From: a virus
DNA: 36,434 bases
Direction: 5' to 3' (one strand)
Virus genome (UHGV): UHGV-0123062
Shown here: positions 4,792-22,153 of the stretch, piece by piece
Numbering within the stretch: the first letter of the stretch is position 1
Layout of the letters: each line of letters starts with the position of its first letter
Program-made: the position numbers and the translations under genes
The notes under the pieces: model-generated
What the model was told of the DNA's origin: nothing
Seen by the model: the letters and a program-made list of their open reading frames with translations, nothing else
Database searches by the model: none

Positions 4792-4991
4792 ACAAAAAGA
4801 CCTGGTTTCGCGCATACATGTGGGCGCTGGTATGCGTCCTCGTCTCTTTCATTCTGTATGCAGGACTACTCCCCCGAATGATTTCATCAGACAGCTCCTT
4901 CCTGGTATTGCTGGGCATTTTCATTGCCATGCTGTACCCGGCAGGCGTTGTTCGCCTTTTCAGTAAGTACATCAAGGAAATCAAGCAATGA
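4788..4991 (+). CDS. Small integral membrane protein (two predicted TM helices), operon gene 3
   Basis: Hydrophobic segments WALVCVLVSFILYAGLL and FLVLLGIFIAMLYPAGVV; ATGA coupling on both sides. Confidence 0.55.
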   Translation: MNKKTWFRAYMWALVCVLVSFILYAGLLPRMISSDSSFLVLLGIFIAMLYPAGVVRLFSKYIKEIKQ

Positions 4992-5818
4992 AGAAATTCA
5001 AACTCTTTCAGATTCTCCCGCTTTTTGCCGCCATCCTGCTGGTTGGTTGCGATCGCGTTGAGCCAGGTAATGTGGGAATCAAAGTCAACAAACTGGGCGA
5101 CGACAAAGGCGTCGGCGAAGTAGTTGGCGTTGGCCGCTACTGGACAGGCTGGAATACAGAGGTTTACATCTTCCCGACTTTCAAACAAATGAAGACTTAC
5201 GATGAGCCGTTCAACTTCCAGATGAGTGACGGCACAACCATCGGCTATCACATCGGCGTGGCCTACAAAGTTGATCCATCCAAAGTTACCACGGTGTTTC
5301 AGACCTACCGCAAAGGCGTGGACGACATTACCGACACTGACCTGCGCCAGAAGATCGCCGACGCACTCAACCGACTGGCCAGCAAAATGACCACCGATAA
5401 ATTTATCGACGGTGGCAAGTCTGAACTGCTGGATTCAGCACTTAAAGACATTCAGGCAGAAATGACACCTATCGGCATTCAGGTAATGAGCCTCTCTTAT
5501 GTGGGTAAGCCGGAATACCCACCAACCGTTATCGACAGCATTAATGCCAAAGTCACGGCAAACCAGAAAACCCTGCAACGTGAACAGGAAGTCAAGCAAC
5601 GCGAAGCTGAAGCCAACATGCTGCGCGCAGAAGCTGCCGGACAAGCCGATGCCATTCGCACAAAAGCCCAGGCTGAAGCCGACGCCATTCGTTTACGCGG
5701 TGAAGCTCTGCGCCAGAATCCCGGCGTTATGGAGCTGGAAGCAATCAACAAATGGAACGGCACGCTGCCGCAATACATGACCAGCAACACCGCTGTTCCG
5801 TTTGTTCCGGTGAAGTAA
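4988..5818 (+). CDS. SPFH/band-7 (stomatin/prohibitin-like) lipoprotein
   Basis: Lipoprotein signal with lipobox (LLVGC); central region consistent with an SPFH domain; C-terminal Ala/Glu/Arg-rich coiled-coil-like segment (REAEANMLRAEAAGQADAIRTKAQAEADAIRLRGEALR). Confidence 0.65.
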   Translation: MKKFKLFQILPLFAAILLVGCDRVEPGNVGIKVNKLGDDKGVGEVVGVGRYWTGWNTEVYIFPTFKQMKTYDEPFNFQMSDGTTIGYHIGVAYKVDPSKVTTVFQTYRKGVDDITDTDLRQKIADALNRLASKMTTDKFIDGGKSELLDSALKDIQAEMTPIGIQVMSLSYVGKPEYPPTVIDSINAKVTANQKTLQREQEVKQREAEANMLRAEAAGQADAIRTKAQAEADAIRLRGEALRQNPGVMELEAINKWNGTLPQYMTSNTAVPFVPVK

Positions 5819-6861: not shown

Positions 6862-9684
6862 ATGACGACAGAGTACATCAGGGACTGGCAACAACCGCGC
6901 CACGCAGTGGGGCGTGAAGGAACGGGGATCCCCGCACCTGAATCCGCGCTTTCCTCCTGGCTGGATGCCTACCGGGCAGAGAACGAGCGCCGACAGGAAA
7001 AGGCTGATGCGGCGTTCTCCGCCACGCCGCTGGGCAACCTGATTAATAAAAGCCTGGATGCACAGGAAAAACAGGACAAAACTATCACACTGGCAGGAGA
7101 CGCCAGAAAACAGGCACGCGGCGCGGTGGATGAAGCCATGGCCTCGCTGCGCCTGCTGCCGTCCTATCTGCGCGATCCGCTTATTCGCCACCTCTCCTTC
7201 CTGCGCAAAAAACAGGAAGCCGATCGCCGGAAAGGCAAAAAGAGCTGGCAGGCGGAACGCTATGCACGCGGAACCCTGCGCAAAATATTCGAACGTCTGG
7301 ATCGCACTGACGGACGCTGGCTGACACCGGGTTATCGCTCCCTTGCCGGACGCGAACGCCTGGACGATTTGCTTTACCTGCCGCAGCTCAACAAACACCA
7401 GATACAGACGCTGGCCACCATGACGGCGGCGATGTTCAGCAGCACCTTCGAAAAACTCTGCGATGGCTTTGGCGCGACCGATGGCGAACTGACCATGGAT
7501 GTAACGCTGAAGACGTATCAGATGCTGGCCCGCATGGCGTTACACCTGCACATCATGCCTCCACATTATGACGCACTGACAACAGATAAAGACCGGAGGA
7601 ACGAACCGGACACGGAGCTGCTGCCGGGCGCAGTCCTTCGCCTGACCTGTGCGGAATGGTGGAAACGCAAACTGTGGCTGTTACGTTGCGAGTGGAGAGA
7701 AGAACAACTCCGCGCCGCCTGTCTGGTTTCCAGAAAAACATCGCCCTATCTGAGCCAGGACGCATTAAGCGAGTTTCGCGCACAGCGCGAGAAAACACGC
7801 GATTTCCTGAAAAGTTTCATGCTGGAAAATGAAGACGGGTTCACGATTGATCTCGAGACGGTGTATTACGCGGGAGTAAGTAACCCGGTTCACCGTAAGG
7901 CAGAAATGATGGCCACCATGAAGGGGCTGGAACTTCTGGCCGAAGCCCGTGGCGACAGAGCGGTGTTTCTGACTGTCACCTGCCCGTCAAAATACCACGC
8001 AACAACGGAGAACGGTCATCCGAATCCCAAATGGAACGGGGCCACCATGCGCGACTCCAGCGATTACCTGGTTAACACGTTTTTTGCGGCGGTCCGCAAA
8101 AAACTGAACCGCGACGGTCTTCGCTGGTATGGCATCCGCACGGTGGAGCCTCACCATGACGGCACTGTGCACTGGCATATGATGGTCTTTGCACATCCGG
8201 ACGAGATTGAAACCATCGTGTCCCACGTCTGCGATATTGCCATTCAGGAAGACCGCCACGAGCTGGGCGATGACATAACTCCGCGTTTTAAAGCGGAGTA
8301 CGTCGACGGCTCAAAAGGCACGCCAACCAGCTACATCGCCACCTACATCGGAAAGAACCTGGACAGCCGCGCCGTGGATGGTATCGACCCGAAAACGGGC
8401 AAGCCACGCGTTGACCACGAAACCGGAAAATCAATGGCCGAGAGCGTGGAGCGCGCCATCGGCTGGGCGCGCCTTCACCGGGTCCGCCAGTTCCAGTTCT
8501 TTGGCATCCCCTCCCGTCAGGTGTGGCGTGAACTGCGCCGCCTTGCCAGCCAGATGGCACGCAACCCGGAAGGCCCGCAACGGCTGAAGGATGACGCAAT
8601 GGATGCAGTGCTCGCTGCCGCTGATGCCGGGTGTTTTGCCTCCTACATTGAAAAACAGGGCGGCGTACTTGTTCCACGCAAAGACTACCTGATTCGCACC
8701 GCCTACGACCTCGCAGATGAGCTGAACGATTACGGCGAACAGAGCGTACAGATTTACGGGATCTGGTCACCACTCATCGGGGAGTCTTCCCGTGTGTGCA
8801 CACATCCGGATAACTGGAAGCTGGTAAGACGTAAACCGGAAGCGGAAGACAGCGCCCGCGAAAATGGTTTTGACCTTCAGGGCGGCCCTGCCGCCCCTTG
8901 GACTCGTGGCAATAACTGTCCCCGTGTACAGGAAACGGACAACAACGGGACAGAACAGCCGGAAGAACGGCCAGCACCGTGGCCGCAGCTTCCTGACGGC
9001 GTTGACGTGAACGAATGGATGCGCTCACTGAAACGGCACGAACGCCGGGCGCTGATGCGTTCGCTTCGTGACAAACAGGCAAAAAACAGCAGTGATGAAA
9101 TGCAGAGCTGGACACAGAGCCGCAAACAGCAGCGGCCTTTGCCTGATAACCACGAATTACTCGCTAAAGAATGGCGGGAATCTGCCGAATCTCTCGGCCT
9201 GCATATCGGTGAACAGCAGATGCAGCACCTGTTACGGGGCGGCAGCCTGTACGTTGACGGCAGCATCATTGCACCGCAGGGATTTGAAATTGTACGCAAA
9301 CCGGATACCCGCCCGGACAGCCGAATCACGCAGCTCTGGCAGCGCCTGAGCCGTAATCACGGCGTAAGCAGCACAGAGATCCGCCATAACCCAGTCGCCA
9401 GCTATCTGGAACAACTGGGGGCATCAGACCCCGAAGCCGCCGCACGTCTGGCATCCACACTTCAGCAGGACCAGAACACCATGCCCCCCCCCGTTACCGT
9501 GCTTTCTGACATGCTGCGCGCCATCCGTGACGCAGAGCACGCACAGAGAATCAGTGAAACCACTGAACGCGCCCACCGCAAAGCAGACCTGCTGCGGGGT
9601 AGCCTGACCAGTGGAAACAAAAAACAGACAGAAACGGGACTCACAAATCCCGTAAATGAGCAAAAAACGCGCCGCGATATATGA
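6862..9684 (+). CDS. A: Rolling-circle replication initiator endonuclease (P2 A-like), with long C-terminal extension
   Basis: HUH motif (HWHMMVFAHPDE) and Y-x3-Y active-site pair (SYIATYIGK); 940 aa, longer than P2 A as recalled. Confidence 0.9.
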   Translation: MTTEYIRDWQQPRHAVGREGTGIPAPESALSSWLDAYRAENERRQEKADAAFSATPLGNLINKSLDAQEKQDKTITLAGDARKQARGAVDEAMASLRLLPSYLRDPLIRHLSFLRKKQEADRRKGKKSWQAERYARGTLRKIFERLDRTDGRWLTPGYRSLAGRERLDDLLYLPQLNKHQIQTLATMTAAMFSSTFEKLCDGFGATDGELTMDVTLKTYQMLARMALHLHIMPPHYDALTTDKDRRNEPDTELLPGAVLRLTCAEWWKRKLWLLRCEWREEQLRAACLVSRKTSPYLSQDALSEFRAQREKTRDFLKSFMLENEDGFTIDLETVYYAGVSNPVHRKAEMMATMKGLELLAEARGDRAVFLTVTCPSKYHATTENGHPNPKWNGATMRDSSDYLVNTFFAAVRKKLNRDGLRWYGIRTVEPHHDGTVHWHMMVFAHPDEIETIVSHVCDIAIQEDRHELGDDITPRFKAEYVDGSKGTPTSYIATYIGKNLDSRAVDGIDPKTGKPRVDHETGKSMAESVERAIGWARLHRVRQFQFFGIPSRQVWRELRRLASQMARNPEGPQRLKDDAMDAVLAAADAGCFASYIEKQGGVLVPRKDYLIRTAYDLADELNDYGEQSVQIYGIWSPLIGESSRVCTHPDNWKLVRRKPEAEDSARENGFDLQGGPAAPWTRGNNCPRVQETDNNGTEQPEERPAPWPQLPDGVDVNEWMRSLKRHERRALMRSLRDKQAKNSSDEMQSWTQSRKQQRPLPDNHELLAKEWRESAESLGLHIGEQQMQHLLRGGSLYVDGSIIAPQGFEIVRKPDTRPDSRITQLWQRLSRNHGVSSTEIRHNPVASYLEQLGASDPEAAARLASTLQQDQNTMPPPVTVLSDMLRAIRDAEHAQRISETTERAHRKADLLRGSLTSGNKKQTETGLTNPVNEQKTRRDI

Positions 9685-9730
9685 AGCGCACACAAAACAG
9701 GCAAAAACGGGATTTAAAAATCCTGTAACC
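9630..9730. promoter_or_regulatory. Candidate parC-like centromere/operator: two palindromic repeat units
   Basis: ACGGGA-N8-TCCCGT (9634..9653) and ACGGGA-N8-TCCTGT (9707..9726) immediately upstream of parM; the first unit lies inside the 3' end of A. Confidence 0.4.
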
Positions 9731-9760
9731 GATTAATTAATCAACATAAGGAAAAGCGAC

Positions 9761-10720
9761 ATGAAAATTTGTATCGACGACGGCTCCACCAACATCAAGC
9801 TGGCATGGACTGAGAACGGCGAACGCCGCAACGCCATCAGCCCGAACAGCTTCAAGTCGGAATGGTCTGCGCCGTTCGGTGGCACGCAGCCCGCGAACTA
9901 CATGCTTGATGGCGTGCGCTATGGTTTTGATCCGGTCAGCGATCGCTTTGTCCAGACGACCGACACGCAATACCAGTACAGCGATGTGAATGTAATTGCC
10001 ATTCATCACGCGCTGGTCAAATCAGGCATCACACCACAGGAAGTGGATGTGGTTGTCACCCTGCCACTGAGCGAGTATTTCGACACAAACGCACAGCCGG
10101 ACATGGCCAACATCAACCGCAAAAAAGCGAACGTTATGCGCCCGGTGGAGTACCAGAACGGCGAAGCATTCACTATCCGTAACGTGCGGGTTATGCCTGA
10201 ATCCATTCCGGCTGGCTTTAAGGCACTGGCTGACATGAGTCCGTTTGAATCCCTGCTGATTGTGGATTTAGGCGGAACCACGCTGGATGTGGCAAAGGTT
10301 CAGGGACAACTGGCAGGTATCAGCCAGGTGTTTTGCGATCCACACGTAGGCGTTTCCCTGATGTCCGATGCCGTACTGTCGGTGATGGCCACTAACGGTA
10401 TGCGTACCAGTCACCACATCGCCAATACCATTATCGAACATCGCCATGATGAAGCCTGGCTGCGCCAGCACATCCACAATGACGCGCATTACGCCAGCCT
10501 GATGGCGGTTATTCGTGAAAAGGAAGAAACACTGAAACAACGCGTGATCCGCGCGCTGGCGGGTTTTTCGGGTTACGGGCGGGTGATGATTGTCGGTGGC
10601 GGGGCAGAAATTGTGGCACCCGCTATCCGCGAAGCCTGCGGAGTTAATGCGACTTTCATCGCGGACGGGGTGCCACAGTTTGCTCTGGTTAATGGGCTGT
10701 ACGCAATGGACAAGGAGTAA
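9761..10720 (+). CDS. parM: ParM/StbA-family actin-like partition ATPase
   Basis: N-terminal phosphate-1 motif (ICIDDGSTNIKLAW), ISPNSFK, YSDVNVIAIHHAL, VMPESIPAG, LIVDLGGTTLD and IVGGGAE match my recollection of plasmid R1 ParM along the whole length; AAGGA RBS. Confidence 0.85.
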   Translation: MKICIDDGSTNIKLAWTENGERRNAISPNSFKSEWSAPFGGTQPANYMLDGVRYGFDPVSDRFVQTTDTQYQYSDVNVIAIHHALVKSGITPQEVDVVVTLPLSEYFDTNAQPDMANINRKKANVMRPVEYQNGEAFTIRNVRVMPESIPAGFKALADMSPFESLLIVDLGGTTLDVAKVQGQLAGISQVFCDPHVGVSLMSDAVLSVMATNGMRTSHHIANTIIEHRHDEAWLRQHIHNDAHYASLMAVIREKEETLKQRVIRALAGFSGYGRVMIVGGGAEIVAPAIREACGVNATFIADGVPQFALVNGLYAMDKE

Positions 10721-10724
10721 ACCA

Positions 10725-11036
10725 ATGACGACACCAACCAGACGGATAAGTTTCTATCTGAAGCCCGCCGCCGTCAAGAACGAAGGCGAAGCATGCGCCT
10801 GGCTGGACAGCCTTACACCAGAAGCCCGCAAAAGTGGTCAACGCGTGGCTTTTCTGGCCGGGCTGGCACTACTGAAAATGAATCCGGCAGAGGCTTACCG
10901 ACTGGCTGCATGGGCTGATGATGAGGCGTTATCAATGACACAAACCAGGACAGAACGCCCCGCGTCACAGCCAGTATCAACCGCACAGATAACCAGTCAG
11001 ATGGCCGGAAATATCCGGGCGTTATTTCCCGAATAA
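10725..11036 (+). CDS. parR: ParR-like ribbon-helix-helix partition adaptor
   Basis: Immediately downstream of parM with AAGGAG RBS; N-terminal beta-strand segment (RRISFYLKP), FLAGLALL and C-terminal NIRALFPE resemble R1 ParR as recalled; start trimmed to ATG 10725 inside listed ORF 10590..11036. Confidence 0.65.
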   Translation: MTTPTRRISFYLKPAAVKNEGEACAWLDSLTPEARKSGQRVAFLAGLALLKMNPAEAYRLAAWADDEALSMTQTRTERPASQPVSTAQITSQMAGNIRALFPE

Positions 11037-11041
11037 CACAA

Positions 11042-11065
11042 CATCAGGGCGCATCCGCCCTGATG
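11042..11065 (+). other. Perfect 10-bp stem / 4-nt loop hairpin (CATCAGGGCG-catc-CGCCCTGATG) between parR and the next gene
   Basis: Seen directly; no adjacent T-run, so terminator function is uncertain. Confidence 0.4.
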
Positions 11066-11099
11066 ACTTTAACCCGGGAGCATAAACAAGGGGGACACA

Positions 11100-11744
11100 A
11101 TGCAACACATTGACAGAGAAAAAGCGCAGCGACTGATTGAGCGGATGGAAGCGCTGGCGAAAGAAGAAAATGTCAACATCCAAAAAATAGCTGAATGTGG
11201 CCAGATAGTTCTTCGTCGTGAAAAAGACCTCAAACAACTGATGTCTGGCGAAACCAGCAAAACATGGACTTCAGGCGAGAAGACGGTTTATTGCAGCTTC
11301 TGCAATAAATCCCAGTACGAAGTCACAAAGGTGATTGCCGGACCGTCTGTTTACATCTGCAATGAGTGCGTGGATTTGTGCAATGAAATTATCAGGAAAG
11401 AAGTGACAGACAAAAAGGAAAAAAAACGCATGAACAGAAAACAGAAACAAGAGTTGAAATACTTCTTACGTAAAGAAATTGCCAGGCTTGAAGATGCAGA
11501 GTCACAATCATCAGAAATTCCGTTCGGAATGGATATCAACGACGCCCGTATGCTCCAGGCATACCGCATAGCTCAGGCTGCACTACAGGCAAAACCGTCA
11601 GATGGACTGGTTAGAGCAGTACATTTCTATGAACAGGTAAAGCGTGAGAATCCGCCAGTCGAAACTGGAGTATGGAAAGACGCTATTGACTGGGTGACCA
11701 AAGAGGCTTGCCAAGCTGTAGACATTGGCATCAAAGGAGAGTGA
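11100..11744 (+). CDS. ClpX zinc-binding-domain (ZBD) mimic protein
   Basis: Residues ~64-100 ([39 protein letters not shown]) closely match the C4 zinc-ribbon of the ClpX N-terminal domain as I recall it from E. coli ClpX; no AAA+ ATPase module follows; flanking regions are unrelated to ClpX. Confidence 0.75.
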
Positions 11745-11745
11745 T

Positions 11746-12009
11746 ATGGCAACTTTGACAAAAAAAGAGCAAGCATGGTTGAGCGAATTACAGGACGTTC
11801 TTGATCGCTGTCCATCACCGAAAAAAATTGGTTTTTACACCATTGGCGATAAAAGCATTTACCTGTATGACCTACGCCGCATGGATGAAATCATGGAGGC
11901 TCTTGATAATCGTTCGTCAATGGATTGGTGTGTTGCTGTCCATGATATGAATGCAGGGTTTGATGAAAAGATTTTGTTCCCCTCATCAGTTGAAAGCACA
12001 GCAGGATAA
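11746..12009 (+). CDS. Hypothetical protein (87 aa), coupled to the ClpX-ZBD gene
   Basis: ATG 11746 is 1 nt after the upstream stop, with AGGAG RBS; followed by a strong terminator. Confidence 0.5.
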   Translation: MATLTKKEQAWLSELQDVLDRCPSPKKIGFYTIGDKSIYLYDLRRMDEIMEALDNRSSMDWCVAVHDMNAGFDEKILFPSSVESTAG

Positions 12010-12043
12010 GGACCCAGCAAATATACACAACCTATAAAACACT

Positions 12044-12070
12044 AAAGCGCCTCAGGGGCGCTTTTTGTTT
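12044..12070 (+). terminator. Rho-independent terminator (AAAGCGCC-tcagg-GGCGCTTT + T-run)
   Basis: 8-bp GC-rich stem, 5-nt loop, TTTTTGTTT tail; ends the rightward early/accessory transcript. Confidence 0.75.
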
Positions 12071-12100
12071 GCACAAAAGTGCACAAATTTGCACAATTTT
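12071..12100. repeat. Three tandem 10-bp repeats GCACAAA(A/T)(G/T)T
   Basis: Seen directly: gcacaaaagt gcacaaattt gcacaatttt, helical-turn phasing, just after the terminator. Confidence 0.5.
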
Positions 12101-12520
12101 TTTGAACAACTTTTTACCCTTCCGACCCGCATGGCGGCTGGATCCGTCAAGGATCCGTGCGTGCACAAAAAAACGCGTTTTTTCTGCGCGCAGGTGACGG
12201 GGGAACAGCCCGCGTTTCAGGGGGTAAATAGCATTCCCTAAACGATGTCGCAGAGATACAACAGAATGGCTGTATTTCTCACGCTGAGCGTGAAAAAGAC
12301 GTGAGGGCTTTTGATTTGATGGGGTGAAAGGTAAGGCCGTCAAAATCGCACTGAGACGGCGAGAACATGCAGTCAACGCGGTGGGATTGCGTAAGAGTCT
12401 GGCTGTCGATGATGGCAATAAGCAGGAAAGCGTCGTGAAATTATCTGATTGATACAGGAGCTGGAGAGTCGGGGCATAAATTTTTTATGCCCCGGCGAAG
12501 CAGCAGACAAGCGAAGCGCG
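12101..12520. other. Non-coding region expected to contain cos (position not resolved)
   Basis: By P2 synteny cos lies between the A-side accessory genes and Q; contains a direct repeat GGATCCGT x2 (12141..12160), a GC-rich stretch GACGGGGGAACAGC (~12195..12208) and a 10-bp-stem hairpin (12472..12494). Confidence 0.3.
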
Positions 12521-13567
12521 TCAGGATGTGGGCTGGGTGTCCAGCAGTGCATAAGGGTTAAAGCGGATCACCTCTTCGCCAAGCCAGTCATTGATGTGCT
12601 TCATGGCCTCCATGACGGGCATCAGCTCGTTAATTGCGTAAACCCGCGCGGCCTTCTCCACATCACCAAACGCACTTTTTTCGCCCGGCATCGCCCCCAT
12701 CAGTTGCGGCGGAACGCGGTGCGCAGCCAGCACATCATCACGGGATGCCGCCTTAACATTCATGAACTCATCCTTTGCGGTGATCTGCTGGAACGGCAAA
12801 ATTTGCACCCCCTCTTTGCCCCCGTTGGGCGCATGGATGAGCACGTTTTTAAACGCACCACCACCACGCGCACCCTGTAGCGTTTCTTTCAGGGAGTCCA
12901 TGCTTTCGCGGTTTACCTGCGCTGCACCGATGTAGATGATGCACCCGGCGTGGGATCCATTGTCGTAATACAGTTTTCTGAACATGTCCGCCGAATGAGA
13001 CAGGCTGGCCGAGAGTAATGCGCCAAGATATTCCGGCATGCCGTAAATTTCCTGGTTAATGTCAGGATTCATCAGGTGGCACACTTTGCCAGGGCGAAAC
13101 TGAAACGCGTCCTTGCCATCCTGCACATACCACCATGATTCAAGATCGCTTCCGCGTCGCATGTATTTCGCCAGGGCGTGCCGTAATTTAAGCGGTTCGC
13201 CGAGCATATTGCTTCGAAGCTCAAGGAATGCGTTACCGAACACAAACCAGTCCAGCGCCAGCGCCGAGAAATCCTGCCGGGAAAGCAGCGGGTGCGGAAT
13301 ATAGCAGCCGAGCAATACATTGCGCTTAAAGTAAAGCGCAGACTGATGCCAGGACGTTTGCCGGGCAGCTCTTGCCAGACCGTACCAGTCCACCGGGGTT
13401 TCGTACCACCGCCCGTTATCAGCACAGTACATATTGTCCAGCAGGTCATGCCCGGTCAGGCGATAAGGACCATCAAATGTGAATGCACTGAGCGATGATT
13501 CTTTCCTGAGCGCATCAGCGAGATCAATGCGTGAACTCATGCGCACTTTTTTATTTTTTCTGCTCAT
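12521..13567 (-). CDS. Q: Portal protein (P2 Q-like)
   Basis: 348 aa; start ATG overlaps the terminase stop (ATGA); synteny with P on the minus strand. Confidence 0.85.
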   Translation of the reverse strand: MSRKNKKVRMSSRIDLADALRKESSLSAFTFDGPYRLTGHDLLDNMYCADNGRWYETPVDWYGLARAARQTSWHQSALYFKRNVLLGCYIPHPLLSRQDFSALALDWFVFGNAFLELRSNMLGEPLKLRHALAKYMRRGSDLESWWYVQDGKDAFQFRPGKVCHLMNPDINQEIYGMPEYLGALLSASLSHSADMFRKLYYDNGSHAGCIIYIGAAQVNRESMDSLKETLQGARGGGAFKNVLIHAPNGGKEGVQILPFQQITAKDEFMNVKAASRDDVLAAHRVPPQLMGAMPGEKSAFGDVEKAARVYAINELMPVMEAMKHINDWLGEEVIRFNPYALLDTQPTS

Positions 13568-20134: not shown

Positions 20135-20276
20135 CCCACCCACATGGGGAAACCTCGGAATATGGGGCGACCGCCTTCTGGATGCACTGGAAACCTGTAA
20201 CGCGGATAAACGGGCCATTGCTGAACTGGATAAGAGAATAGCCGAACTGACACACCAGACGGGAGTAACACAATGA
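19995..20276 (+). CDS. lysC: o-spanin lipoprotein (Rz1 / LysC-like), embedded in +1 frame of the i-spanin gene
   Basis: Lipobox LLTGCAG, Pro-rich body; overlaps lysB out of frame; the listed ORF begins at GTG 19965. Confidence 0.6.
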   Translation: MNAPTLCLTLVLLTGCAGTQNAPGPAPSVRLIPQTLTMPVTPPPFPDPPTWGNLGIWGDRLLDALETCNADKRAIAELDKRIAELTHQTGVTQ

Positions 20277-22153
20277 CCAGTAAGAACTTTGCACTGATTA
20301 CAGCCATGACACAGGCTGAACTGACTCAAAAGGTGAATGAACATCTTGCGAAAGGGTGGCATCTTCAGGGGGAGACGCGGGTTGCCTACGAACCCGGCAC
20401 CCCGTGGTATCTAATGCAGGCAATGGTGGCCGATGGCACTACAGACATCTCACCTGATTCCCCCCAGCACGGCAGCGTGCCGGAGTGGTATTACGTGGTG
20501 GTACTTGCTGGTCAATCCAATGCCATGTCATATGGTGAGGGAATGCCGCTGCCGGATTCTTACGATGCGCCCCACCCACGCATTAAGCAACTGGCCCGTC
20601 GCAACACAGTGACTCCCGGTGGTAAAGCATGCGCATTTAACGACATCATTCCGGCAGACCACTGCCTGCATGATGTTCAGGATATGAGCGCACTGAATCA
20701 TCCGAAGGCAGACCTGAGCAAAGGGCAGTACGGCTGTGTCGGCCAGGGCTTACATATTGCCAAAAAACTGCTTCCGTATATCCCGAATAACGCGGGGATC
20801 CTGCTGGTACCATGCTGTCGTGGTGGTTCGGCATTCACCCAGGGCGCGGAGGGGACATTCAGTGCGGACACGGGGGCCAGCCAGGATTCGGCACGCTGGG
20901 GTGTGGGTAAACCGTTATATCAGGACCTGATCGCACGCACCAAAGCGGCATTACAGAAGAACCCGAAAAATGTGTTGCTGGCGGTGTGCTGGATGCAGGG
21001 CGAATTTGACATGAGCGCTGCCACCTACGCACAGCAACCGGACCTGTTCACGGCCATGCTGAAGCAGTTCCGTACTGACCTTTCCGGATTTAACGCGCAG
21101 TGCCATGGCGGCAGTGCTGCAGTTGTACCGTGGATTTGTGGCGACACGACGTATTACTGGAAAAACACATACGGCACACAGTATGACTCCGTCTACGGCG
21201 CGTACAAAAACAGGGAGAGCGACAACGTTTTCTTTGTGCCGTTCATGACCGACGGTAACGGCAACAACACGCCCACCAACTTACCGGCAGAAGACCCGGA
21301 TATTGCTGATGCAGGTTATTACGGCGCGCAATCCCGTAGTAATGGTAATTGGGTATCATCAAACCGCCCGACACATTTCAGTTCATGGGCGCGCAGGAGC
21401 ATTATTCCGGATCGTATGGCAACCGCTATTCTGAACGCAGCCGGGCGCACCTCAGCCTTCATCAGTGGTAAGGCACCGGAAATCAAACCCTCGCCCGGCG
21501 GCGACACTCCATCGGGGCCGTCTGATGGTGACACATCCGTTCATACAGTCTCCCTGCTGCCGACAGCCGGAGAGGCTGCTGCGCAGGGCTGGACCATCAC
21601 CGGCGGCAGTGTTGCGCTGGAAGATGGTGTGTTTAAGGTTACCAAGCAGAGCAATAAAACCTGGTCCCTGATGCATCCGGTGGATGACGCAGTCTCCCTG
21701 CTGACACGGGGTGGCAGACTGAGCTGTAAGTTTCGACTGTCAGGCGCACTGACCAACAACCAGTTCGGTCTGGGAATTTATCTGTATACCGATGTAGCGT
21801 TACCTGACGTCGTGGCGATGACCGGGACTGGTAACCCGTTCCTGATGTCGTTCTTCACCCAGACCACAGGCGGCAAACTGAATCTGATGCATCACAAGAA
21901 AGCCGGAAACACAAAGTTGGGCGAGTTCGGGAATTACAGTAACGACTGGCAGACGCTGGAGCTGGTGTTCACCGCCGGCAGTGCCACGGTTACTCCGAAA
22001 CTGAATGGAGTGGCTGGCCCGGCATTCCAGGTCATAAAAGACAGTCTGACACTGGGGCTGAATGCGCTGACGTTAACTGATATCACTAAAAATGCCGCGT
22101 ACGGCGTCGATATCGGCAGCCTGGTGCTGGAAATCAATAATCCCGCAGCATAA
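20273..22153 (+). CDS. NanS-p-like SGNH/SASA esterase with N-terminal DUF1737-like region and C-terminal beta-sandwich-like domain
   Basis: 626 aa; GQSNAMS catalytic-serine motif as in sialate O-acetylesterases; Pro/Gly-rich linker (PEIKPSPGGDTPSGPSDGD); inserted between lysis genes and R. Confidence 0.7.
   Translation: MTSKNFALITAMTQAELTQKVNEHLAKGWHLQGETRVAYEPGTPWYLMQAMVADGTTDISPDSPQHGSVPEWYYVVVLAGQSNAMSYGEGMPLPDSYDAPHPRIKQLARRNTVTPGGKACAFNDIIPADHCLHDVQDMSALNHPKADLSKGQYGCVGQGLHIAKKLLPYIPNNAGILLVPCCRGGSAFTQGAEGTFSADTGASQDSARWGVGKPLYQDLIARTKAALQKNPKNVLLAVCWMQGEFDMSAATYAQQPDLFTAMLKQFRTDLSGFNAQCHGGSAAVVPWICGDTTYYWKNTYGTQYDSVYGAYKNRESDNVFFVPFMTDGNGNNTPTNLPAEDPDIADAGYYGAQSRSNGNWVSSNRPTHFSSWARRSIIPDRMATAILNAAGRTSAFISGKAPEIKPSPGGDTPSGPSDGDTSVHTVSLLPTAGEAAAQGWTITGGSVALEDGVFKVTKQSNKTWSLMHPVDDAVSLLTRGGRLSCKFRLSGALTNNQFGLGIYLYTDVALPDVVAMTGTGNPFLMSFFTQTTGGKLNLMHHKKAGNTKLGEFGNYSNDWQTLELVFTAGSATVTPKLNGVAGPAFQVIKDSLTLGLNALTLTDITKNAAYGVDIGSLVLEINNPAA

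Follow-up and report, generated by a model that had tools for sequence, protein, structure and literature searches.

The locus considered here raises the question of which protein a P2-family prophage encodes with a zinc-binding domain (ZBD) of the ClpX type, and whether such a protein might act on the ClpXP protease of the host. The window, i.e. the whole stretch of DNA that was analysed (virus genome UHGV-0123062; 36,434 nucleotides), had been read in a first-pass annotation as containing a single three-part protein of 214 residues with a near-exact copy of the ClpX ZBD, followed by a gene for an 87-aa partner. The 214-aa open reading frame (ORF) with its ATG start and the 87-aa ORF beginning 1 nt after its stop are both present (Table 1). 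The source is a P88-like prophage of E. coli (Xuanwuvirus, P2-family) which is 96–98% identical to P88, PhiR44_2 and vB_EcoM-705R2 over most of its length. Its genes are arranged in the order GpA-type replication endonuclease, parM, parR-like gene, 214-aa ORF, 87-aa ORF, terminator, ca. 450 nt of non-coding DNA and portal gene Q. The stretch 11100–12009 is composed of small shuffling accessory cassettes and forms the tail of an early-strand gene string (GpA gene, parM, parR, accessory genes). Its allocation to the variable slot between A and Q is justified insofar as the genes lie between the GpA-type gene and portal gene Q, but parM and parR intervene. The hairpin upstream and the terminator downstream, between which the genes had been seen to be bracketed, both exist; the hairpin lacks a T-run on the + strand and thus provides no clear terminator in gene direction. 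An Rfam scan of positions 9600–12600 gave no match.

Table 1. Features of the accessory gene region and its surroundings. Positions refer to the window unless another contig is named.
Feature	Position	Strand	Remarks
GpA-type replication gene (endonuclease)	6862–9684		
parM	9761–10720	+	Pfam StbA_N/ParM_N, E 1e-82
parR-like gene	10725–11036	+	Pfam Plasmid_stab_B, E 6e-24
Perfect hairpin, 10-bp stem	11042–11065		between parR and ZBD gene
214-aa ORF, ATG start	11100–11744	+	fusion of the 110-aa N-domain + ZBD gene with the 104-aa gene
Family-specific helical N-domain, aa 1–60	11100–11279	+	conserved in homologues down to 36–50% identity
ClpX-type C4 ZBD, aa 63–101, ending ...IIRKE	11286–11402	+	Pfam PF06689 and PDB matches
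A8 homopolymer	11419–11426	+	A7 in relatives (GAA AAA AAC GCA TGA); the extra A abolishes the stop and joins two frames
104-aa gene, internal ATG	11430–11744	+	Shine-Dalgarno (SD) sequence AAGGA at 11414–11418
..(I)KGE-stop junctions	11730–11748; L051 4020–4042; L050 4075–4092		this genome and two other contigs
87-aa cassette gene (PHROG 1714)	11746–12009	+	starts 1 nt after the stop of the 214-aa ORF
Intrinsic terminator	12044–12072	+	closes the accessory gene string; 12044–12064, then T-run
Portal gene Q	12521–13567		on the strand opposite to the accessory genes

The 214-aa ORF exists because of a single additional A in a homopolymer (A8). At the best-matching E. coli locus (strain 1450, locus L001), which is identical over 2.8 kb save for one base, the tract is A7 instead of A8. 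In this A7 form the first gene ends after 110 aa with ...KKEKNA-stop, and the ATG of the 104-aa gene overlaps the stop (ATGA). The unrelated C-terminal region of the first-pass annotation is thus the neighbouring gene, and the presumed three-part protein resolves into a rare one-base frameshift fusion of two usually separate genes. The PHROG 6797 profile (107 positions) matches only aa 1–106 (E 1e-57), and other PHROGs match the C-terminal part. In an exact-sequence look-up, at least 1000 contigs were listed for the 110-aa protein, compared with 327 for the 104-aa protein and 17 for the 214-aa fusion. For the fusion 28 index blocks were obtained, and at least 24 contigs that were read carry the identical ORF in the same context and originate from several independent samples. 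Among the complete E. coli genomes with this junction the A8 tract was encountered in 1 of ca. 54, namely in STEC388, whose ZBD gene is annotated as a pseudogene by PGAP. As the downstream context of A8 in STEC388 is a different one, the slip is either recurrent or recombined. Across lineages (L021/L022, L011–L015, L001 and this genome) the tract is polymorphic, with A5, A6 (GGGA6), A7 (including GGA7) and A8, and its lengths give a 123-aa extended, a 110-aa split or a 214-aa fused protein.

Homopolymer length errors are common and A7 is found in 98% of the relatives, so that the extra A might reflect a sequencing or assembly error at a locus which truly consists of two genes. We consider this most improbable, since the contigs with the identical ORF include short-read SPAdes-style assemblies from independent samples, and the same 214-aa ORF recurs in a complete genome, where its surroundings differ. 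The fusion represents a genuine heritable allele, albeit a rare one. A second alternative assumes that the A7 form produces the 214-aa fusion by programmed −1 ribosomal frameshifting on A_AAA_AAC and that A8 hard-wires this product. The zero-frame xxA AAA AAC of the A7 and GGGA6 forms indeed corresponds to a slippery heptamer X_XXY_YYZ, which is kept wherever the 104-aa gene follows, and a −1 slip would give exactly ...EKKRMNRKQ..., the junction present in the A8 ORF. However, no stimulatory structure was detected downstream (MFE −9.9 kcal/mol vs. a shuffle mean of −14.5, z = +1.6, i.e. weaker), the SD-like AAGGA is immediately adjacent rather than 10–14 nt upstream, and the ZBD gene occurs without the 104-aa partner in 11 of 30 loci. 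Moreover, the ATGA overlap and the good SD already account for the expression of both genes, which makes frameshifting very improbable. Judged from the sequences, the normal gene product is the 110-aa two-domain protein and not the 214-aa form. The fused allele would yield no free 110-aa protein and would leave the ZBD tethered to an Ea22-like module, while the 104-aa protein may still be made in the A8 allele from the internal ATG.

The presence of a ClpX-type ZBD without an AAA+ module, in contrast to the three-part architecture, is upheld by Pfam and PDB searches. Pfam PF06689 (zf-C4_ClpX) is matched with 64.2 bits (cut-off 27, E 9.6e-18) over profile positions 2–38 of 39, and the ClpX ZBD chains 1OVX/2DS5 in the PDB match aa 63–101 (E 3.7e-19). 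No AAA Pfam match was found in the ORF, and the NCBIfam ClpX model matches only aa 60–127, with 56 bits against a cut-off of 359. Identity to the ZBD of E. coli ClpX amounts to 31 of 39 residues (79%), or to 32 of 42 over a slightly longer span, which is too low for a near-exact copy. The zinc-ligand cysteines C65, C68, C87 and C90, invariant in all aligned family members, are spaced as C-x2-C-x18-C-x2-C; the x19 given earlier has to be corrected. Among the pocket residues, F67 (corresponding to F16 of ClpX) is invariant, and I97 (I46 of ClpX) is an isoleucine, replaced by valine in one homologue. The substitutions relative to ClpX are L12T, L13V, G19N, H23Y, R26T, L28V, D37N, D45E and E49K.

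Sensitive blastn searches with the ZBD segment against 5426 complete E. coli genomes revealed no DNA similarity to chromosomal clpX. Matches were obtained in 221 genomes, and all those listed are annotated as small ZBD genes; 128 are placed on chromosomes and 105 on plasmids, with sizes of ca. 94–106 kb for the plasmids listed. The resemblance between this ZBD and that of ClpX is therefore old and has been maintained at the protein level. A recent capture from the host clpX gene was rejected on the same grounds. Among close alleles dN/dS is ca. 0.5, a value derived from very few substitutions.

The 110-aa protein displays a two-domain layout consisting of a helical N-domain of ca. 50–60 aa, a flexible linker and the ZBD. 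Homologues of the same layout with 36–69% identity are found in Salmonella and in other E. coli elements, and a further one is carried by L035, another P2-like contig. A profile of the N-domain gave only chance-level matches in the PDB and Pfam (E ≥ 0.03). Genes for this combination of N-domain and ZBD always reside among Ea-type accessory cassettes. They occur in accessory arrays of the early or nin type, both in lambdoid phages and in P1-like ones, and in the P1-like phage-plasmids D6, CMS-2020a and PhiR41_1 the ZBD gene lies within Ea22/EaA-type accessory gene arrays. With ca. 4% of the complete E. coli genomes (221/5426), in addition to isolated phages (P88, PhiR44_2, D6), the family is common. 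The gene is already catalogued, at NCBI as ‘ClpX C4-type zinc finger protein’ (WP_001163782.1), frequently under the erroneous name ‘carboxylate-amine ligase’, and as PHROG 6797 of unknown function. WP_001163782.1 and PHROG 6797 represent the same gene, as aa 1–108 are identical to those of the 110-aa protein; in contrast to WP_001163782.1, the A8 allele has no stop of its own and runs into the next gene. The same gene is named ‘carboxylate-amine ligase’ in phage P88 and orf93 in phage D6. A literature search retrieved no paper characterising any stand-alone phage ZBD protein, and queries on Ea22 together with ClpX, stand-alone phage ClpX zinc fingers, PF06689 and prophage anti-adaptors retrieved nothing relevant. 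What the locus offers is thus a known but unstudied kind of gene, here in the form of a rare fused allele. Other stand-alone ZBD architectures were noted in passing (proteins P0213, P0258 and P0403–P0408), namely a 136-aa protein with an N-terminal ZBD and, by eye, an HTH-like C-terminal tail, and proteins of ca. 220 aa in which the ZBD is repeated up to four times; all of these appear uncharacterised.

The gene order around the ZBD gene was surveyed in 30 IMG/VR loci that carry it. ParM and parR constitute a partition module which in P88-like phages is invariably located before the ZBD gene, and the latter follows directly after parR with constant spacing in all 30 loci. A functional coupling between the ZBD gene and ParMR was considered and rejected; the synteny is one by descent, and L035 keeps the ZBD gene without parM. 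In this contig parM is lost and parR disrupted by a stop, and the ZBD gene is intact. As a side observation, parM is replaced in L035 by a divergent ORF pair (1825–2630 and 2640–2930) which by eye looks like a Doc/Fic-type toxin and an antitoxin. A complete plasmid-type ParM/ParR module directly 3′ of the replication gene of an integrated P2-family prophage deserves mention in itself. It suggests a possible past or present episomal phase, and P88-like phages may, as judged from their gene content, have or once have had one; the prophage of E. coli strain 1450 carries an integrase and adjoins dmsA.

The position next to the ZBD gene is occupied by the full 104-aa gene in 16 of the 30 loci, by a truncated copy in 3 and, in the remaining 11, by unrelated genes. 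With modest confidence (pLDDT 70), a four-helix structure is predicted for the 104-aa protein, which matches no Pfam family; the last ca. 50 aa of this protein (11598–11741, ending with ...IKGE) are 77–85% identical to the C-termini of ead/Ea22-like proteins. For the 87-aa protein a confident α/β model was obtained (pLDDT 89), for which fold and structure searches matched no solved or annotated structural relative. The earlier view of the 87-aa gene as a dedicated partner is not borne out by its distribution: it is present in only 9 of the 30 ZBD loci, has the 104-aa gene as its immediate predecessor in 2 of them, and elsewhere follows Ea22-like and XF1762-family genes. The segment encoding the 104-aa C-terminus and the 87-aa gene recurs at 92–97% DNA identity in lambdoid phages and in phage-plasmids of ca. 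95 kb, behind genes annotated as ead/Ea22-like. The 104-aa and 87-aa genes are separated by an inserted 163-aa XF1762-family gene in PhiR44_2 as well as in many prophages of E. coli. This gene, absent here (3547–4038 in L051), matched the Mom family below the threshold (E 1e-4, 22 bits vs. 27), a hint from the sequence that it might be a DNA-modification or anti-restriction cassette.

Genes of unrelated families which precede the 87-aa gene all end with ..(I)KGE-stop, and the codons concerned constitute the SD of the 87-aa gene AAAGGAGAG. This dual use explains the conserved junction as well as the apparent coupling. By its sequence the ..(I)KGE-stop element looks like a recombination or cassette junction, and lambda ea22 presumably has it as well. 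The 87-aa gene constitutes a third cassette that shuffles independently.

The location of these cassettes also bears on the proposal that they act together, as two or three components, in anti-phage defence or superinfection exclusion from a slot of the tin/old type. In favour of this proposal, they lie where P2 has its accessory slot, between A and Q, and the cargo of the slot differs between relatives. However, at E ≤ 0.1 no PADLOC-DB 2.0 family was matched by the ZBD fusion, the 87-aa protein, ParR or ParM, no PADLOC model fits, and the genes lack a consistent co-occurrence. No sigma-70-like promoter was found directly 5′ of the genes, so that expression in the lysogen in the manner of tin and old is not indicated; the genes rather continue the early-strand string. 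In addition, the homologues reside in the early and nin-type arrays described above, and on balance a defence role appears quite improbable.

Some further features of the prophage were recorded outside the cassettes. The non-coding stretch between the terminator and Q contains, within positions 12068–12171, four copies of TGCACAA (starting at 12070, 12080, 12090 and 12162), which are partly palindromic (12075–12100), and a tandem GGATCCGT pair at 12140 and 12151; this arrangement could represent a cos-region or a regulatory binding array. When the annotation of the nearly identical E. coli 1450 prophage is used as a guide, an SPFH-domain gene is located in the early region (4988–5818) and a 626-aa DUF6645 gene between the lysis and tail genes (20273–22153). 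Both are unusual for P2-like phages.

For the function of the 110-aa protein we tentatively propose that it mimics the ClpX N-domain in soluble form and titrates adaptors and substrates or pairs with ClpX N-domains. By analogy this seems possible, although we would put it somewhat below an even chance. The ClpX ZBD serves as docking platform for lambda O, SspB, RssB and trigger factor, and F16 and I46 line its hydrophobic pocket (PMC7804408). [quoted passage not shown] In the proposed scenario, the phage ZBD would dimerise with itself and possibly with ClpX N-domains. Its conserved hydrophobic pocket would compete for ligands that dock onto the ClpX N-domain, such as SspB, RssB and substrates of the lambda O or MuA type, and N-domain-dependent ClpXP proteolysis would be selectively dampened. 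A further, phage-specific contact would come from the family-specific N-domain. The conservation of the four cysteines and of the F16 and I46 equivalents across the family, as well as the intact ZBD gene of L035 next to a lost parM and a decayed parR, were counted in favour of this proposal. On the other side, the dN/dS of only ca. 0.5 stems from so few substitutions that it is uninformative, L12T and L13V are situated at the N-terminal edge of the ZBD fold, and the N-domain has no recognisable relative, which leaves half of the protein unexplained. The decoy hypothesis is nevertheless a plausible and testable idea. A more far-reaching version would regard P88-like and P1/D6-like phages as carriers of the first known ‘N-domain decoys’, which selectively turn off those branches of ClpXP proteolysis that depend on adaptors and the N-domain (sigma-S through RssB, ssrA turnover with the help of SspB, lambda-O/MuA-type substrates) and leave basal ClpXP intact, with the A-tract toggling between a free and an Ea22-tethered form. 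This extended scenario we regard as unlikely.

The main rival to the decoy reading takes the ZBD as a compact zinc-ribbon dimerisation and interaction module without any role in ClpXP proteolysis, the function being carried by the N-domain. The cluster representatives with ZBD-like fingers numbered 12,782, among them many short non-ClpX proteins and many with 2–6 copies of the domain. The occurrence of such fingers in thousands of non-ClpX proteins was counted against the decoy function, as the domain could be a generic dimerising zinc ribbon. The HTH-like tail seen by eye in actinobacterial ZBD proteins, the conservation of the N-domain across the family and the placement of the gene among cassettes of the Ea type, which encode oligomeric modulators (PMC10834534), point in the same direction. 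In distant homologues, however, which share only 36–51% overall identity with the protein encoded by the 214-aa ORF, 31–36 of 42 residues of the ZBD core are identical to enterobacterial ClpX, including F16 and I46. Since DNA similarity to clpX is lacking, this constraint exceeds that expected of a mere dimeriser. The rival reading thus appears to us rather unlikely, but it is one that has to be taken seriously.

The two domains might alternatively cooperate in an adaptor or degrader in which a target from phage or host is captured by the N-domain and brought to ClpXP through heterodimerisation of the ZBD with the ClpX N-domain. A conserved, family-specific N-domain on a flexible linker is compatible with such a function, as is the identity to ClpX of those ZBD helix and hairpin residues that form the dimer interface. 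Work by Donaldson and by Wojtyra from 2003 is said to have found the ClpX ZBDs to be stable dimers within the hexamer, and exchange with a free ZBD may therefore be inefficient. Furthermore, the literature search provided no support, so that delivery to ClpXP seems improbable.

If the 110-aa protein does compete for ligands of the ClpX N-domain, it would offer a compact natural tool to separate adaptor-dependent from direct degradation by ClpXP. It would also provide a possible link between the carriage of such prophages and the stability of RpoS, the stability of replication initiators and the exclusion of ClpX-dependent phages, e.g. Mu. The form relevant for experiments is the 110-aa gene; the 214-aa fusion is a tethered variant of natural origin, and membership of the 87-aa gene in the unit should not be taken for granted.

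Several known systems invite comparison. P2 tin and old, two accessory genes located between A and the end of the genome with cos and Q, occupy an equivalent variable position at the genome end next to portal gene Q. They differ from the genes described here, which bear no sequence relation to them, match no defence model, have no detected promoter of their own and are preceded by parMR. The lambdoid ead/Ea22-like genes (lambda Ea22; PF13935) share the similar C-terminal ca. 50 aa with the 104-aa gene, and there, too, the next gene starts 1 nt after the stop. However, neither the 214-aa nor the 104-aa protein matches PF13935 at E ≤ 1, and the solved C-terminal domain of lambda Ea22 is unrelated, with no match in the PDB. 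Lambda Ea22 is pro-lysogenic by an unknown mechanism (PMC10834534). With the N-terminal ZBD of E. coli ClpX (PF06689; PDB 1OVX, 2DS5–2DS8) the phage protein has in common the spacing of the C4 ribbon, 31 of 39 residues and the F16/I46 pair; unlike ClpX, it lacks the AAA+ ATPase, its ZBD is preceded by a phage-specific helical domain of ca. 60 aa, and nucleotide similarity is absent. Both host anti-adaptors and the inhibition of Lon by phages are known: IraD, IraM and IraP are anti-adaptors that bind RssB, and T4 PinA and T7 gp4.5 are phage inhibitors of Lon. To our knowledge, no viral copy of the substrate- and adaptor-docking domain of a protease has been characterised to date, and a literature search likewise found none. 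The outcome proposed here would be the same as for the anti-adaptors, PinA and gp4.5, namely that a small protein selectively shields substrates from an AAA+ protease. Those proteins bind RssB or the protease via unrelated folds, whereas the agent proposed here would be a copy of the protease's own docking domain.
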